DNA of 64,000 nt from an uncultured bacterium (GTDB lineage Bacteria > Fidelibacterota > Marinisomatia > Marinisomatales > Marinisomataceae), in assembly GCA_943788675.1 (NCBI GenBank), contig CALSRE010000001.1:49400-113399 (forward strand). Reading direction: 5' to 3'. The notes below the pieces were generated by a model, which ran no database searches, was not told the origin of the DNA, and saw only the letters and a program-made list of their open reading frames with translations. Every line of letters starts with the position of its first letter. Position 1 is the first letter of the stretch. Positions 12,288 to 18,324 of this stretch are shown here, in pieces. A program made the position numbers and the translations under genes.

Positions 12288-13262
12288 TTAAAGCGAACTA
12301 TACCATTGAATAGCATATGCTAAAGAAACGCTAATCATTAATCCTAACATTAATCTTAGGAAATCTTTATATAGCATTGGGAAGATTGCTTTCTTATGTC
12401 TACTCGTATAGGTTAATTCACCATATCCTATAGACATCCATATACCGAGCTCTCTTCCAGCAAGCATTCCCATAAAAACAAATGTTGTACTCATGGGGAT
12501 ATTGTTTAATTCCTTGAAATAATAAAGAACAAAACAATATACTAAATCAATAAGTGTTGCTGACCTTACATAACGCGTGTTAGTTTTAGATAGTACAATT
12601 TCTTGTATTTTCCCACCGCGCTCATAAAACATAAAAGCAAGGCCAATAAGCATAGCTGCTAAAACAAATATTTGGAATATTGTTGACTGAACAGTACTGT
12701 ATCTTGGCAAGAAAATCATAATATTTGCTAGATCATGCTTAAGCCATGTTGACCACAACCAACCTGTTGTCAGCCATTGGCCAATCCTCCAATAATTATT
12801 GTATTTATTTTTACCCTTTTCTCCTTCATTTAAAAAATATTTGCTTATTAAATACCATGATATCCAAGCAAAAACAAATGATACTGCATAACCTAGGAAG
12901 CTTTTAAGCAACATCTTTTCCATAACAACAGAAGAGGCAAAAACTGATAATACTAAAAAAGTTGTTGAAACTGGAATTTTCAACCTTGTTAAAGCAACAA
13001 GAACAAGTGGAGCAATGGCATGATACCATTGAATTGTAATTTCAGGAAATTTATCAAGTCTACCGAATGCAGGATCATTAATAGCAAATCCTTGAATCAT
13101 TGTAAGAACAAAAATTCCGCCCATATAAGCAAACATCCAGTACCATTTAACGTCTTGGTTAGATGAGATATAAGTTCCTAATGTCTGAATACTATCATTT
13201 GCAGTAACAGCGTACACTGCAAACAAAAAACCTAATAAAGACCAAATTGTAAGAAAATCCAT
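12288..13262 (-). CDS. polytopic membrane protein, possibly a divergent PiT/PHO4-like inorganic ion transporter
   Basis: 324 aa and highly hydrophobic. N-terminal TANDSIQTLGTYISS resembles the GANDVANxxGTxVxS PiT signature. A second weaker HDLANIM element is present. The assignment is tentative. Confidence 0.35.
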   Translation of the reverse strand: MDFLTIWSLLGFLFAVYAVTANDSIQTLGTYISSNQDVKWYWMFAYMGGIFVLTMIQGFAINDPAFGRLDKFPEITIQWYHAIAPLVLVALTRLKIPVSTTFLVLSVFASSVVMEKMLLKSFLGYAVSFVFAWISWYLISKYFLNEGEKGKNKYNNYWRIGQWLTTGWLWSTWLKHDLANIMIFLPRYSTVQSTIFQIFVLAAMLIGLAFMFYERGGKIQEIVLSKTNTRYVRSATLIDLVYCFVLYYFKELNNIPMSTTFVFMGMLAGRELGIWMSIGYGELTYTSRHKKAIFPMLYKDFLRLMLGLMISVSLAYAIQWYSSL

Positions 13263-13319
13263 TTTTTTTCCTTCTTAAACAGTTTTACTTATTTATGACA
13301 ATAATGACTAAGATTTTTG

Positions 13320-13392
13320 CTCCGGAGGAGAGACTCGAACTCCCGACCTGGTGATTAACAGTCACTCGCTCTACCAACTGAGCTACTCCGGA
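13320..13392 (-). tRNA. tRNA-Asn (anticodon GTT)
   Basis: Reverse complement folds as TCCGGAG-TA-GCTC-AGTTGGTA-GAGC-G-AGTGA-CTGTTAA-TCACC-AGGTC-GGGAG-TTCGAGT-CTCTC-CTCCGGA-G. Confidence 0.9.
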
Positions 13393-13478: not shown

Positions 13479-16214
13479 TTATAAATCAGCTTTTATTCCA
13501 AAAGTAAATTTTCTATTATAATACTCTTCTTGCATCATATATCTACTACTTCCTTGATAATATCTTAATGGCTGATTGGTTAAATTATTGAAATCAGCAT
13601 AGATAGAGATATTTTCTCTTAAATTATAATTTGCATTTAAATCAACATATGTTGATTTATCATACCATCTATCTTCAGATTTGGAATCACCAAATTCTTC
13701 AAGAAATTCTCCTTGATGATTAAGAGATAAACGTAAGGTCATTGGCCCTCTTTCATATGACATAGAAAGATTGTAACTAAGCTCAGACGTACCTGGCATA
13801 GAATTATCTATTACATCGGGTCTGTCTTCTTGAAGCTTTGGATCTAAATTATCTATTTTTGAATCAATAGCAGTAACATTGGCATATAAACCTAGTCCCG
13901 GTAATATTTGCCTTTGAAATGCAATTTCAACTCCTAATAAAGATGCATTACCACCATTCAATGCTTTGTCTAATTGAAAGCCATTGTAGTCTGGTAGATT
14001 GTCAGCTTGAGTTACATAGCCAGATGTATAAACAACGAAGTTATCTATATCTTTCGTAAACATTCCAGCTGAGAATAACCCAACATCATCAAAATACCTT
14101 TCGAAAGAAATATCAAAATTTGTTGAAATGGTAGGCTCTAGTTCAGGATTACCAACCTTTATCTCTTCATCTTCCACTTTTACTTGTTGATATGGAACGG
14201 TATCAAAGTAATTAGGTCTTGCTAAAGACTTTGTTAAAGCAACCCTAATCTTTGACGCCCCATCTAAATCATATATCAAGTGCAAAGAAGGTAATACATC
14301 AGTATAGTCGTTATCGGCAGCTGTAATTATATTATTTTGATCATTATCCTCATCATAGCTTCTTGCTTCTAAATCATATAAGGTTGTTCTTTCTAATCTT
14401 ATTCCACCTAAAACAAGCAATTGGTCTGAATAATCATATGAAGCCATTCCATAGAATGAAGTGATATCTTCAGAGGCTTTGAAGTTTCCAGCTAACTCTT
14501 CTTCAACAATAACTCTCTCAAAAAGTTCTGTATTTGATAAATCCAAATTTCCAAGAAATTCTCTACTTACATAAGATCCTGAATTATAAGAAGTACCATT
14601 TCCATCATTTAACCATTCGCTTTTATCTTGACTAACGATGTTTGAAAATGCATCTGCTAAAAAAGCATCTTCATCTACTGGTTCAAATTCGTAAAACTCA
14701 TTACGTCTTTCCTTTTTTCTTGAACTAATTTTTAATCCAGCCTCTAATTTTAGGTTGTCATTAAAATTGAAGTCAGCGTCTACCTTGAAGCTTTGTGCTT
14801 TTTCATCAGTATCTCTACTTTCTTCAATTAAGTTTCTAAAATCCCATACATTATTTAAGTCTGCAGCGATTTCATTTGAGAAAGTAAAGTTTGGCTTTTC
14901 GGTACTTTGATTCCACACGGCAGTTTGTTTTTTTAATCTTAAAGCCAGATATCTTTCGTTCGGTCTTAGCTCTGAAGCTTCCGAAATTTTAAAAGAATAA
15001 TCTAGTTTTAGCTTATCTAAAAGACTTGTTCCACCAAATTTATAGGAAAAAAGCTTTTGATCTTCCAGTCTTCCATATTCATTACCTGGCAATCCTGCTT
15101 TAGTTTGTCTTCTAACCTCTTGGCTTCCTTCACCTTCATCTAAATCCTTTATTCTTTGACGATATCTATTTTCGTAATCATCACGATCATTATAATTAAG
15201 ATCTGTATATAGTTCTGTATTACCCAAATTGTAATCGAATCTCAATCCAAGACTCTTTCTCTCGCGATGAACTAAATACTTTCTAATATCATGTTCAACA
15301 ATATTTCCTTCATCGTCCCATTCAGCTTCAACATTATCAGTACCTGTCCAGTTATCATAAAAAGAAAAATTAAACACATAACCAAAATTGTTGTCTTCTG
15401 ATCTATTGGAATGCATTCCAGATAACTGAACTATCTTACCAGCTTCATCCAAGGTATTCTCACCTCTTCCAACAGTTACTGATGTTCGTGCTCCTGCAGC
15501 TTTTCGTGTAATAAGATTAATTGACCCTCCTATTGCATCAGCATCCATATCAGGAGTGAGGGCTTTTATAACTTCTACAGTTTGAATCATATCAGCAGGA
15601 ATTAGGTCCAACTGGTTACTTCTTGTTGTAGCTTCAGCAGATGGCATTCTTTCTCCATTGATCGTTGCTGAATTAAAGCTTGATGGAGTTCCTCTTACAT
15701 GACCGAATCTTGCCTCTCCCATATCATTATAAACTGCAATTCCAGGAACACGTTTCAAGGCATCGCCAATATTTGAATCAGGAAATTTTCCGATCTGATC
15801 TGAGGAAATTACATTACTAATATTTGATTTATTTTTTTGATTATTTAATGCCCTTGCTTGGCCTGATAAAGAATTTCCGATAACATCAATATCGTTTCCA
15901 ACTAATATTCCAACTGATAATTCTACTGAAAAAGTGTTCAAACTTTCTGAATCAATAGAAATATCTTTTTCTTGATTTTTATAGCCAATGTATGAAACTA
16001 CTAGCTTATAATTTCCTAATGGTAGATTTGAAAGATAAACTTTACCTCCAGAATCAGTTATTCCTCCAAAGTTAGTTCCCTCCAAATAAACATTGGCACC
16101 GGGTAATGGAAAGGAACCGTTAGCATCTGAAACAACTCCTAGTAAATTACCGGTTTGTGAAAATAATTGTGTTATAGCAACACATACGTATAGACAAATT
16201 GTTTTTAAACGCAT
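13479..16214 (-). CDS. TonB-dependent receptor with N-terminal carboxypeptidase-regulatory-like domain
   Basis: 911 aa with a signal peptide and CarboxypepD_reg-like segment (GVVSDANGSFPLPGANVYLEG...YKLVVSYIGY). Plug region (SNIGDALKRVPGI, INGER) and a long beta-barrel ending in the aromatic terminal strand FTFGIKADL. Confidence 0.85.
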   Translation of the reverse strand: MRLKTICLYVCVAITQLFSQTGNLLGVVSDANGSFPLPGANVYLEGTNFGGITDSGGKVYLSNLPLGNYKLVVSYIGYKNQEKDISIDSESLNTFSVELSVGILVGNDIDVIGNSLSGQARALNNQKNKSNISNVISSDQIGKFPDSNIGDALKRVPGIAVYNDMGEARFGHVRGTPSSFNSATINGERMPSAEATTRSNQLDLIPADMIQTVEVIKALTPDMDADAIGGSINLITRKAAGARTSVTVGRGENTLDEAGKIVQLSGMHSNRSEDNNFGYVFNFSFYDNWTGTDNVEAEWDDEGNIVEHDIRKYLVHRERKSLGLRFDYNLGNTELYTDLNYNDRDDYENRYRQRIKDLDEGEGSQEVRRQTKAGLPGNEYGRLEDQKLFSYKFGGTSLLDKLKLDYSFKISEASELRPNERYLALRLKKQTAVWNQSTEKPNFTFSNEIAADLNNVWDFRNLIEESRDTDEKAQSFKVDADFNFNDNLKLEAGLKISSRKKERRNEFYEFEPVDEDAFLADAFSNIVSQDKSEWLNDGNGTSYNSGSYVSREFLGNLDLSNTELFERVIVEEELAGNFKASEDITSFYGMASYDYSDQLLVLGGIRLERTTLYDLEARSYDEDNDQNNIITAADNDYTDVLPSLHLIYDLDGASKIRVALTKSLARPNYFDTVPYQQVKVEDEEIKVGNPELEPTISTNFDISFERYFDDVGLFSAGMFTKDIDNFVVYTSGYVTQADNLPDYNGFQLDKALNGGNASLLGVEIAFQRQILPGLGLYANVTAIDSKIDNLDPKLQEDRPDVIDNSMPGTSELSYNLSMSYERGPMTLRLSLNHQGEFLEEFGDSKSEDRWYDKSTYVDLNANYNLRENISIYADFNNLTNQPLRYYQGSSRYMMQEEYYNRKFTFGIKADL

Positions 16215-16410
16215 GGCCTAATCTCCTTTTTTATAAAAATTAGCTTCAACTTTTAAAAACGCCCCCTAAGACTTTTTTAATCGCATGGCCAGACTTGTTT
16301 TCTCATCCACGTCTGCTTCAACTCTTAAAAAGTAGTGAAACTCTTTTTAAGTGCATGGCCAGGTCAATTTTTTCATTAAGACCTGCTTCAACATCTTAAA
16401 AAGCGATTTT
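16205..16410 (-). repeat. three tandem ~71-bp copies of the receptor gene translation-initiation region, each with a covarying hairpin
   Basis: Minus-strand units are TTTTTAA(G/A)A(T)GTTGAAG-C-stem-loop-stem-GGCCATGC(G/A). Stems are CTAAT/ATTAG (unit at the real ATG), CAGAC/GTCTG and CAGGTC/GACCTG. Unit starts on the plus strand are 16211, 16283 and 16353. Confidence 0.8.
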
Positions 16411-16419
16411 AACTACGGG

Positions 16420-16449
16420 ATAATAAACAATTAGAAAAATATTTGTCAA
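16420..16449 (-). promoter_or_regulatory. candidate sigma70-type promoter upstream of the triplicated leader
   Basis: Minus strand has TTGACA (16449-16444), an 18-nt spacer, then TATTAT (16425-16420). The promoter consensus of this lineage is unknown. Confidence 0.3.
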
Positions 16450-16464
16450 TTTTTTTTTTAGAAT

Positions 16465-18324
16465 TTATAATTCTAGCTCAATAAATATTTTTTTTGATAA
16501 ATCAAATTGTCCATGAGATTGAACATTTTCTGAAATCTGAATATTATTATTCGAAGAACATTTTCCGATATTAGCGTGAGTAGATTTTAATCCTCCATAA
16601 TACCATCTTACGTCTGATATGTATGCGAAATCACCTTCCTTTGCACCAAGCTCATCCATTAATCTTTGCGGTAAATTAATTTCGTTAGATGTGTTTTTAG
16701 CAACTTCAATCATCTCGCCATTAAAGGTAATTTTACTTCCAGCATTTTCATTTACTGTTGAACCCTTGAAATACTCTGGACCATCTTTAATGGTCCATAA
16801 AGTTAATCCTTTAATTTTTTCATAATGATCATTACCAGGCTTAGTAGTTAACAATGTTACAATCACTCCAATAGTTGTGCAGGCAAATACATTATAGAGC
16901 GCTCTTATGTATGACCATGGTTTTGCTTCAACGTACTCTATTCCATGTGAGAATGGTTGAACAAAAAATTGTGGATACTGGATACCTAAGAATATAAAAA
17001 CTGCTCCTAATAAAAACGTTAATATGGCAGCCCTCGAAGAGAAGCGTTGCCAGAAAATTCCTAAAAATATCACTGTGACCATAGGTGGAGTTACCACACT
17101 GTGAAAAGCTCCATGTGCTTCATATATTGTTCCATATTGTGCAAATAAGAATGCTGCTTGAATACCAATAAAAGTTACCAGCAGAGAAGTAAGCATAGAT
17201 ACTCTCAGACGTGTTTTCTCTGAAGGATTTTTGCTTAATGGAGTATATACATCGTTTACAGCAACTGCTGCTGAAGCGTTAATTTGAGAATCTAGACTTG
17301 ACATTAAAGCTGCAACAACAGCTGCAACTAAAAATGCAAAAATTGGTTCAGAATTAGATACTAAAGAAGCAACTACAGTGAAGATTCCATTAGGATTTGT
17401 TGTTTCAGGAATGATATTAGGATTAATATTAGCGATAGCTCTTGCAATCCATCCGGAATTAGAAACAGCTACAGTTCCAATTGGTAGAAATACGAGTACA
17501 TTCATCATTGTTGCTCTTCTAGCATGCACTACAGAGCGAGATGCTAAAAATCGCATAATTACTGCTTGATTCATAAAGGCAAATCCAACTGATCCTACCA
17601 CTCCATCTTGCCAGAAAATGCCAACAAAATTAAAATCTGGAGGTGAGTTAAAATCAGCTAATGGTAATTTATTTGTTGTAGAAAGATTATCCCAGAATAA
17701 ATCAAATCCACCAATGTATGCAATACCTAACCCAAAAATTAATAAGCCTGCAAAGAGTAAAATTACTCCTTGAAGAAAATCAGTAAAGATGATAGCAGTT
17801 TGCCCGCCGAGCGAAACATATACTCCTGAAATCACCGCAACTACAATAATAATAGTATTTATTTCCCATCCTAATATGGGCTGCAATAATGATCCAAGCG
17901 CTAATAACCCAATACCAATATAGCCAATAAGATATAATAACATAGTAACTGTTGATAAATTTCTTACTGTTGAATTAAAACGTCTTTCAAAATATTCAGG
18001 AATAGAATTAACCTGCATATAATAAATAATTGGTATCCAGCCAAATAACAATAATGGCATGAAGAACCAATCATTCATGTAAGTCATTGTGGATGAAAAA
18101 CCATATTCAAATCCTTTAGATGCATACTTTGCAAAACTATGAGACCCCACACCAGTAGCTAACATAGACATTCCAATTAACCACCAAGAAAATCTTCTCC
18201 CTCCGAAGAAAAAGTCTTCAGTAGACTGATTATTTCGAGCAAAAAATAAACCAGCACCTAAGACAAAAAATACATATGCAGTAAGAATAACCCAAAAAAG
18301 TTCTGTTGTTGGAATCGTTGTCAT
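16465..18324 (-). CDS. sodium:solute symporter (SSF) family transporter with ~110-aa soluble C-terminal extension
   Basis: 619 aa. The first ~500 aa are polytopic with SSF-like organisation (GGRRFSWW..., GGQTAIIFTDFLQG). The tail (KIKGLTLWTIKDG...FIELEL) is hydrophilic. Confidence 0.75.
   Translation of the reverse strand: MTTIPTTELFWVILTAYVFFVLGAGLFFARNNQSTEDFFFGGRRFSWWLIGMSMLATGVGSHSFAKYASKGFEYGFSSTMTYMNDWFFMPLLLFGWIPIIYYMQVNSIPEYFERRFNSTVRNLSTVTMLLYLIGYIGIGLLALGSLLQPILGWEINTIIIVVAVISGVYVSLGGQTAIIFTDFLQGVILLFAGLLIFGLGIAYIGGFDLFWDNLSTTNKLPLADFNSPPDFNFVGIFWQDGVVGSVGFAFMNQAVIMRFLASRSVVHARRATMMNVLVFLPIGTVAVSNSGWIARAIANINPNIIPETTNPNGIFTVVASLVSNSEPIFAFLVAAVVAALMSSLDSQINASAAVAVNDVYTPLSKNPSEKTRLRVSMLTSLLVTFIGIQAAFLFAQYGTIYEAHGAFHSVVTPPMVTVIFLGIFWQRFSSRAAILTFLLGAVFIFLGIQYPQFFVQPFSHGIEYVEAKPWSYIRALYNVFACTTIGVIVTLLTTKPGNDHYEKIKGLTLWTIKDGPEYFKGSTVNENAGSKITFNGEMIEVAKNTSNEINLPQRLMDELGAKEGDFAYISDVRWYYGGLKSTHANIGKCSSNNNIQISENVQSHGQFDLSKKIFIELEL

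Follow-up and report, generated by a model that had tools for sequence, protein, structure and literature searches.

The 64-kb window analysed here is a stretch of contig CALSRE010000001.1 (assembly GCA_943788675.1) from an uncultured member of the Marinisomataceae, with a G+C content of 31%. A leader of ~200 nucleotides (nt), composed of three tandem units, falls in the gap between the gene of a TonB-dependent outer-membrane nutrient receptor (13479-16214, 911 amino acids) and a sodium:solute symporter (SSF) gene (16465-18324), and is most likely a new gene-control RNA. It is a single-copy, strongly constrained and transcribable sense-strand RNA with covarying inner stems and a conserved promoter. 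The receptor gene is encoded on the minus strand, as are most of the features described here, and we infer that it is the gene regulated by the leader. Our preferred reading, which we hold tentatively, is that of a cis-regulatory, switch-type leader, in which a sensor domain formed by a long-range helix (P1) and the junction of units 1 and 2 would gate the start codon of the receptor.

Organization of the three units

The first-pass annotation of this DNA, made from the sequence alone, had described three tandem units of ~71 nt with shared boxes upstream of the receptor gene, and both repeat and pattern searches recovered them. The units lie in 16201-16403 on the minus strand, each composed of TTTTTAAnnGTTGAAGC, a variable hairpin and then GGCCATGCnnTTAAAAA. 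The repeat search yielded one repeat family in the region, with three 58-nt copies that are 71-72% identical and spaced by 72 and 70 nt. The pattern GTTGAAGC-N14-34-GGCCATG has exactly 3 matches in the 64 kb versus 0.00 expected from 100 shuffles. Tandem Repeats Finder reported no array in the region, because the identity of the units (~71%) is close to the threshold of the program.

Unit 1, the distal unit (16343-16403, minus strand), has the outer arms CUUUUUAAG/CUUAAAAAG and the boxes GUUGAAGC (16392-16385) and GGCCAUGC (16360-16353), between which the inner hairpin H1 is located (16385-16360). The same boxes recur in the middle unit, unit 2 (16272-16332), at 16322-16315 and 16290-16283, together with the inner hairpin H2 (16315-16290). 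The outer arms of the proximal unit, unit 3 (16201-16260), are GUUUUUAA/UUAAAAAC, the latter corresponding to codons 3-5 of the receptor. Its inner hairpin H3 (16243-16218) places a U-run opposite the Shine-Dalgarno (SD) sequence AAGGAG (16228-16223), and the receptor start codon (16214-16212) is inside the unit-3 box GGCCAUGC. All of these features are on the minus strand. The inner arms are CAGGTC/GACCTG in unit 1, CAGAC/GTCTG in unit 2 and CTAAT/ATTAG in unit 3; the unit-3 loop is 16 nt long and contains the AAGGAG, and the other two loops are AATGAAAAAA and GATGAGAAAA, all as previously annotated. Four stem positions had been said to change with exact compensation between the middle and proximal units. 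The compensation is indeed complete (A-U to U-A, G-C to A-U and C-G to U-A), but only three of the five pairs differ.

An outer inverted repeat, CTTTTTAAG/CTTAAAAAG, is present in every unit, with arms that can also be written as CUUUUUAAG/CUUAAAAAG, so that a lone unit is predicted to fold as a long hairpin with the AUG within a 5x5 internal loop, UGAAG/GCCAU. The outer stems are nearly pure A-U. Assignment of the internal loop as a K-turn or loop-E motif was rejected on inspection, as GA is missing from its 3' strand. Each unit contains its own copy of the ATG and codons 2-4 (ATGC-NN-TTAAAAA), which gives rise to upstream open reading frames (uORFs) of 12 and 6 codons. uORF1 (MHLKRVSLLFKS and a stop codon; 16318-16356, minus strand) starts at the unit-1 AUG and uORF2 (MRLKKS and a stop codon; 16266-16286, minus strand) starts at the unit-2 AUG. 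The gene strand of the leader holds no open reading frame (ORF) longer than these two. Plus-strand ORFs of 27-42 amino acids across the leader were discarded, since they are disrupted by loop indels in other species.

The apical loops of H1, H2 and H3 (16379-16366, 16307-16298 and 16238-16223) contain an A-rich AUGA(A/G)AAA in most species, and the loop AUG of units 1 and 2 opens a 9-codon ORF in another frame (MKKLTWPCT and MRKQVWPCD, each followed by a stop). H1 and H2 both have a palindromic UGGCCA at their 3' foot, through which pairing from unit to unit might in principle occur.

Distribution of the leader

A pattern scan for the unit over one genome per bacterial and archaeal species found it in 17 stretches, 14 of them from Marinimicrobia/SAR406 genomes and three of them isolated chance matches in unrelated organisms. 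The 14 Marinimicrobia species have one locus per genome, with one to three units. Metagenomes were scanned with the invariant 5' end of the leader, and 14 of the 38 fetched stretches contain it. The genome loci, the metagenome loci, two ortholog contigs and the window together provided a set of 33 loci with 27 distinct leaders.

A search for further copies of the unit, proposed by the first-pass annotation, found none beyond this locus. A covariance model of the unit detected only leader units in 379 kb of related DNA (E <= 1.6e-7; next best E ~0.9), viral contigs contained no unit copies, and there were no further copies in the window, in 40 related loci or near distant orthologs. A dispersed repeat of the REP or MITE type was rejected on the same grounds, with one locus per genome in 14 species and no scattered copies. 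The annotation had also called for a comparison of the upstream regions of orthologous receptor genes, which gave a divided answer. Receptor orthologs at 93% and 88% identity carry the triplet, whereas a 68%-identical ortholog has a plain AAGGAG leader and no unit; the triple-unit leader is thus, within the sequences compared, a single-copy innovation of one Marinisoma-like clade of the Marinimicrobia (SAR406).

The claim that no known riboswitch signature is present was borne out. Scanning the whole window with 4227 Rfam models at gathering thresholds returned two transfer RNAs (tRNAs) only, and no cobalamin riboswitch (RF00174), T-box or IMES/marine motifs. A permissive scan of 15800-16900 gave best scores of 16-24 bits versus gathering thresholds of 37-75, all to eukaryotic snoRNA and miRNA models. 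A T-box in which UGGC would pair with the 3' end of tRNA-Asn was rejected; there is no Rfam T-box match and UGGCCA is merely palindromic. A literature search on regulatory RNAs of Marinimicrobia/SAR406 found nothing relevant.

Selection on the leader as RNA

Comparison of the orthologous loci indicates that the leader is an RNA under strong selection. Between species pairs in which the receptor coding sequences are 81-83% identical, the ~200-nt leader is 91-98% identical; in the same pairs the fourfold synonymous sites of the receptor are only ~50-55% identical, and the 70 nt upstream of the leader 46-84%. No leader of the 27 has a change in the boxes GUUGAAG and GCCAUGC of units 1 and 2. The inner stems between these boxes vary in a manner that retains pairing. 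H1 occurs as nine haplotypes; at its pair 33-53 (numbering of alignment A2) 16 leaders have A-U, 10 have G-C and one has G·U, and additional G·U variants are found among the leaders. H2 likewise occurs as nine haplotypes; 18 leaders have U-A, seven have C-G and two have U·G at its pair 105-123, and its pair 106-122 is seen as U-A, A-U or G·U. Over 35 distinct units, six of the eight inner-stem pairs change on both sides, and the unit-level covariation score of 0.277, compared with 0.127 in shuffles, was reached by 0 of 500 shuffles.

Pairing of the helices is also more complete on the sense than on the antisense strand because of G·U pairs, which make up 19% of H3 cells. The proportion of paired cells, sense versus antisense, is 100 versus 79% for P1, 96 versus 92% for H2 and 99.5 versus 80.5% for H3. 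Compensatory and G·U changes that pair on the gene strand argue for selection at the RNA level. The first-pass annotation had reached this view by comparing the three units with one another, and the orthologs bear it out through compensatory and G·U-intermediate changes in the inner stems.

Promoter and predicted transcript start

The earlier promoter candidate TTGACA-18-TATTAT (16420-16449, minus strand) comprises a -35 hexamer at 16449-16444, an 18-nt spacer and a -10 hexamer at 16425-16420, with an A-run in front. It scores 11/12 in a consensus scan and is conserved across relatives. The arrangement TTGACA-18-TAnnnT-(5-8 nt)-AG is retained in 30 distinct upstream regions, in which the spacer and discriminator are variable and the TTGACA is almost invariant. 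The 27 leaders share a sharp conservation boundary, with variable sequence upstream and invariant sequence from AGTTAAAA on, and the conserved block opens at AGTTAAAATCGC, 6-7 nt past the -10 hexamer. The transcript is predicted to start at ~16414, with the invariant 5' end AGUUAAAAUCGC at 16403-16414 (minus strand). With the conserved promoter located upstream of them, all three units should be transcribed.

A promoter-like TTGTCA-17-TATAAT on the opposite strand (16443-16471, plus, 11/12) overlaps the -35 region of the leader promoter and points into the 3' end of the symporter gene. It may be a chance match in AT-rich DNA.

Long-range helix P1 and competing folds

P1 is an 18-base-pair helix predicted by both RNAalifold and single-sequence minimum-free-energy folding. 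Its 5' strand, UUAAAA-U-CGCUUUUUAAGA (16394-16412, minus strand), overlaps the unit-1 5' arm, and its 3' strand, UCUUAGGGGGCG-U-UUUUAA (16253-16271, minus strand), comprises the linker between units 2 and 3 and the unit-3 5' arm. In the 27 leaders 486 of 486 P1 cells are paired, 21% of them as G·U, and the helix includes a run of four U·G pairs. A single G-to-A change, which converts U·G to U-A, is all the variation in the unit 2-3 linker, whereas the matching unit 1-2 linker is variable. RNAalifold in addition predicts a linker hairpin, LH (16324-16351, minus strand), between the unit-1 3' arm CUUAAAAAG and the unit-2 5' arm CUUUUUAAG, with a 10-nt variable loop. In LH 98.8% of cells are paired; 16 leaders close it with C-G and 8 with A-U, and in 3 this position is unpaired. 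Units 1 and 2 are accordingly modeled as a four-way junction of P1, H1, LH and H2, in which the joining strands would be the boxes GUUGAAG and GCCAUGC.

The P1 model accounts for 98.9% of cells as paired versus 95.9% for three self-closed units. An A-to-U change found in 12 leaders breaks the self-closed stem of unit 2 and is harmless under the P1 model, and changes that disrupt the self-closed stems of units 1 and 2 are tolerated across the leaders. The two folds are close in energy, 0.8-4.6 kcal/mol apart in five species. The mean ensemble probability over the 27 leaders is 0.72 for P1, 0.21 for unit-1 closure and 0.23 for unit-3 closure, both closures being anticorrelated with P1, and P1 and the unit-3 outer stem share the segment GUUUUUAA. 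The first-pass annotation had treated the units as three equivalent initiation regions. The three repeated units stand, but not their equivalence: comparative data and predicted ensembles favour units 1 and 2 as a separate domain closed by P1, with unit 3 as the expression platform.

Two other structures were considered and rejected. A shifted-register fold, made of a 5' hairpin and both linker hairpins, has its two diagnostic helices at mean ensemble probabilities of 0.00 and 0.02, and is less stable than the self-closed fold by 4-9 kcal/mol and than the P1 fold by 8-10 kcal/mol. P1 has CGC/GCG at its base, with UUUUUAAAA immediately after it and a complementary A-tract in front. An intrinsic terminator or attenuator at this place was rejected; UUUUU does follow the CGC/GCG base, but P1 encloses ~125 nt. 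No canonical intrinsic terminator was found on either strand of 15900-16700.

Two-state model for control of the receptor start codon

In the proposed mechanism the leader, a promoter-proximal 5' untranslated region (UTR) of ~200 nt, would have arisen by triplication of the receptor's own translation-initiation hairpin, and would exist in two states. In State I the invariant 5' end UUAAAAUCGCUUUUUAAGA would pair with the unit 2-3 linker and unit-3 5' arm UCUUAGGGGGCGUUUUUAA, such that P1 closes the four-way junction of P1, H1, LH and H2. The unit-3 outer stem would then be unable to form, and therefore the receptor AUG would be exposed, with the SD sequence in a weak hairpin opposite the U-run. 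In State II units 1 and 3 would self-close, burying the AUG in the internal loop between two helices and blocking initiation. Because P1 and the unit-3 outer stem compete for GUUUUUAA, formation of P1 would free the AUG and loss of P1 would bury it. An effector that stabilises one of the states would set the level of receptor synthesis; candidate effectors are a small ligand or ion at the junction, an RNA-binding protein and temperature. At the receptor-less loci the target of this domain would be whatever follows it.

The leader at receptor-less loci

The receptor gene is deleted in 13 loci, which fall into group A (nine loci: L007, L015, L017, L018, L029, L044, L046, L059 and L063) and group B (four loci: L009, L022, L033 and L042). 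The deletion is clean in both groups, leaving the leader, a remnant of the signal-peptide codons and then the gene of a 324-residue PiT-like protein, whose counterpart in the window lies 3' of the receptor gene. Identity in group B is 97% for the 165-nt domain of units 1 and 2 and 79-82% for the unit-3 remnant, versus 67% at the fourfold sites of the adjacent gene. The group A loci have a domain identity of 95-98% versus 83% at fourfold sites, and their unit 3 is without SD sequence, AUG and both boxes. By this comparison the units 1-2 domain has a function that does not need the receptor gene, so that its role cannot be only that of a stand-by or decoy site for that gene, and unit 3 behaves as the receptor's expression platform. 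A G-to-A change accompanied by C-to-U between box 1 and box 2 of unit 3 in receptor-less lineages was not counted as covariation, as AT-biased decay predicts the same.

Evaluation of the switch model and of alternative explanations

Several observations weigh against the switch-type reading. The support for P1 consists of invariant columns and one one-sided change, with no true covariation, and the alternative folds are derived from nearest-neighbour energies of helices rich in A/U and G·U pairs, which are imprecise. The sequence is conserved well beyond structural need, which the proposed fold leaves unexplained, and the gene context (a TIGR01782 receptor, a PiT-like transporter and an SSF symporter) indicates no ligand. 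In group A the next gene begins ~60 nt further on and has its own SD sequence; the proposed translational mechanism cannot operate there though the domain is kept, and a role in transcription, in stability or in trans suits these loci no less well.

A wider form of the switch-type reading would treat the leader as an RNA switch class derived from a triplicated initiation hairpin, with two copies serving as a pseudo-symmetric four-way-junction sensor closed by the G·U-rich P1 and the third gated via an 8-nt arm for which it and P1 compete, and with the sensor domain living in addition as a gene-independent small RNA (sRNA). The sRNA life is proposed as the reason why the domain outlasts repeated loss of the receptor, and we regard this wider form as doubtful.

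The leader could alternatively be a constitutive 5'-UTR stabiliser and translation enhancer without sensing, in which 5'-end-dependent decay of a very abundant mRNA for an outer-membrane protein is held off by the paired 5' end and the hairpins, and ribosomes (S1) would load at the A-rich loops and pseudo-start sites. We consider both parts of this explanation unlikely. It does account for the pairing of the 5'-terminal nucleotides in P1, for the A-rich apical loops of all three units and for the strong promoter with its upstream A-tract. Marinimicrobia TonB-dependent transporters have moreover been detected in upper-ocean metaproteomes (PMC5776962), and SD-independent loading is plausible since many genes of the window lack an SD sequence. 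Such a stabiliser, however, needs structure and not 91-98% identity in loops, boxes and linkers, it leaves the near-isoenergetic competing folds without purpose, and the 68%-identical ortholog copes with a plain AAGGAG leader.

Conservation at the 13 receptor-deleted loci, where the domain is ~97% conserved while unit 3 decays, is best accounted for, among the readings considered, by a trans-acting sRNA or protein sponge derived from the 5' UTR. Its ~165-nt units 1-2 domain would end at the GC-rich base of P1 and the UUUUU, and the CGC/GCG base, the UUUUUAAAA that follows and the A-tract in front have a terminator-like outline; the repeated hairpins with conserved loops and boxes also conform to it. 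Yet there is no canonical intrinsic terminator, and a 125-nt multibranch insert in P1 would be atypical for termination. Just two units would be included, the absence of GGA from the unit-1 loop makes the RNA unlike CsrB, and no target complementarity was identified; we regard this origin as rather improbable.

A relay through the uORFs is more doubtful by far. Translation of the 12- and 6-codon uORFs would melt LH and the P1 3' strand, and termination and reinitiation would feed the receptor start, coupling expression to translation status. The AUG and codons 2-4 are present in every unit, the uORF1 stop is within box 1 of unit 2 and the uORF2 stop within the P1 3' strand, and the uORF lengths are constant in 27 of 27 leaders. 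Constant length is nonetheless a trivial result of nucleotide conservation, and neither uORF is preceded by an SD sequence. The substitutions are mostly non-synonymous (V/F, S/L, L/V, K/E, R/Q and H/R), the peptides contain no run of regulatory codons, and the unit-2 AUG is ACG in L015.

TonB-dependent receptor genes are often under repressor control, and the tandem repeats at ~71-bp spacing with inverted repeats in each recall operator sites. A DNA-level element (repeated operator or iteron sites, for example for a Fur-like repressor) or a neutral relic of tandem duplication is still highly improbable, as the palindromic inner arms differ between units and only the non-palindromic boxes are conserved, P1, H2 and H3 pair better on the sense strand, the repeats are downstream of the promoter, and 91-98% identity versus ~50% at synonymous sites excludes a neutral relic.

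Comparison with known leader RNAs

The leader most resembles, by analogy, a translational riboswitch with tandem homologous sub-domains. Like the tandem glycine riboswitch and the btuB cobalamin riboswitch, which precedes a TonB-dependent receptor gene, it forms an extended 5' leader to the mRNA of a transporter or receptor. It shares with riboswitches conserved sequences in joining strands and internal loops flanked by covarying stems, two adjoining homologous sub-domains, and a closing helix P1 whose 3' strand is modeled to overlap the start-codon expression platform. It has the generic position of a riboswitch leader, in the 5' UTR on the sense strand and downstream of the promoter, given the predicted transcript start. 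The conserved unpaired core and covarying stems typical of such leaders are likewise seen, H1, H2 and LH by compensatory changes and P1 by invariant pairs only. Unlike riboswitches, the leader has no Rfam match, its unit derives from the start region of the gene itself with the AUGs kept, it is found in one Marinimicrobia clade only, and its domain outlasts loss of the regulated gene.

The weak hairpin of unit 3, with a U-run opposite the SD purines (U·G and U-A), is also seen in fourU and ROSE thermometers, and the A-U-rich outer stems are a further point of likeness. H3 places CUAAUUUU(U) opposite (G)GAGAUUAG, that is, the fourU arrangement of a U-run on the SD sequence beside the start codon, and is closed in predicted ensembles at both 15 and 37 C. 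Those thermometers are single short hairpins, whereas here a conserved 165-nt domain lies upstream and conservation is far above what melting needs. The ompA 5'-UTR stabiliser, too, is long and structured, has its 5' end paired and belongs to the mRNA of a beta-barrel protein abundant in the outer membrane, but has no repeated units, internal start codons or evident competing folds.

With sRNAs derived from riboswitches or 5' UTRs, such as Listeria SreA/SreB, and with the multi-hairpin sponges CsrB/RsmZ, the leader shares a promoter-proximal domain of repeated hairpins, which could end at a stem and U-run and function apart from the gene downstream; the domain is retained at the receptor-less loci. 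The leader differs from them in that it has no canonical terminator, its loops do not all contain GGA, the repeats number just two to three, and neither a target nor a partner protein was identified. A CsrA/RsmA sponge was rejected, since GGA is missing from the unit-1 loop UUAAUGAAAAAAUU and is confined to the SD sequence of unit 3 and, in some leaders, the loop of unit 2. Attenuators of the trp type also contain short uORFs in a chain of mutually exclusive hairpins, and the leader has four UUAAAA(A) segments versus three UUUUUAA segments. Unlike such attenuators, it has no run of regulatory codons and no terminator hairpin, and the shifted-register fold has the negligible probabilities given above.

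Receptor locus and neighbouring genes

The receptor contains CarboxypepD_reg, Plug and beta-barrel domains and belongs to subfamily TIGR01782; the window holds no second receptor paralog for comparison. The PiT-like gene is located 3' of it (12288-13262, minus strand), with a tRNA-Asn(GTT) gene (13319-13392, minus strand) between the two. The 324-residue product is a membrane protein with an N-terminal TANDSIQTLGT motif. It has no significant Pfam or NCBIfam match, a PHO4 match only below threshold, and no sequence match in the PDB. PF01384 is carried by a few relatives that are 78-79% identical to it, and it is probably a divergent transporter of the PiT/PHO4 family. The protein is very abundant in marine metagenomes, with >120 near-identical clusters. 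In distant lineages with a 79-80% identical PiT-like protein (L061:4802-4999 and L064:4829-4999) the PiT-like gene has no leader and is preceded by an ORF for a predicted lipoprotein of 56-65 amino acids, the stop of which is 1 base before the PiT start (TAATATG). The adjoining stop and start suggest translational coupling.

The receptor gene is a presence/absence polymorphism among close relatives. Besides the two groups of clean deletions, L016 has a different deletion that extends from unit 1 into the receptor C-terminus, L035 has a premature stop at receptor codon 167, and the L066 and L073 types (L066-L071 and L073-L077) have no cassette at all. Relatives without leader and receptor have the gene order symporter, tRNA-Asn, PiT. 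The PiT genes of L002, which has the receptor, and of group A, which does not, are 0.85-0.98 identical at fourfold sites, ~0.95 for most of group A, while their leaders are just 82% identical. Such near-identical PiT genes next to divergent leaders suggest recombining alleles, and selection of the phage-receptor type could be behind the polymorphism.

The leader-receptor cassette precedes the tRNA-Asn gene in the window and follows it in L002. The tRNA-Asn gene is upstream of the leader in L002 (213-286), L010, L041 and all receptor-less loci; the positions compared include L063:4590-4665 and L066:4308-4382. The sequence preceding the tRNA gene is homologous in both arrangements, and L002 has a duplicated remnant of the symporter gene 3' end ahead of the promoter. 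The two arrangements thus show that the promoter-leader-receptor cassette was rearranged around the tRNA-Asn gene.

Significance

Few uncultured bacteria of the ocean interior are as abundant as SAR406/Marinimicrobia, and to our knowledge nothing is known about gene regulation in this group. The TonB-dependent transporters of these bacteria are visible in ocean metaproteomes (PMC5776962). The leader described here is a sharply bounded, very conserved RNA of 200 nt for which a concrete two-state model can be proposed, and would offer a rare view of a regulatory RNA domain evolving by tandem duplication of a start-codon hairpin. The receptor-less lineages constitute a natural experiment in which what the sensor domain does can be told apart from what the expression platform does. 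Should a ligand exist, it would indicate the substrate or the signal of a marine receptor that is very abundant and uncharacterised.

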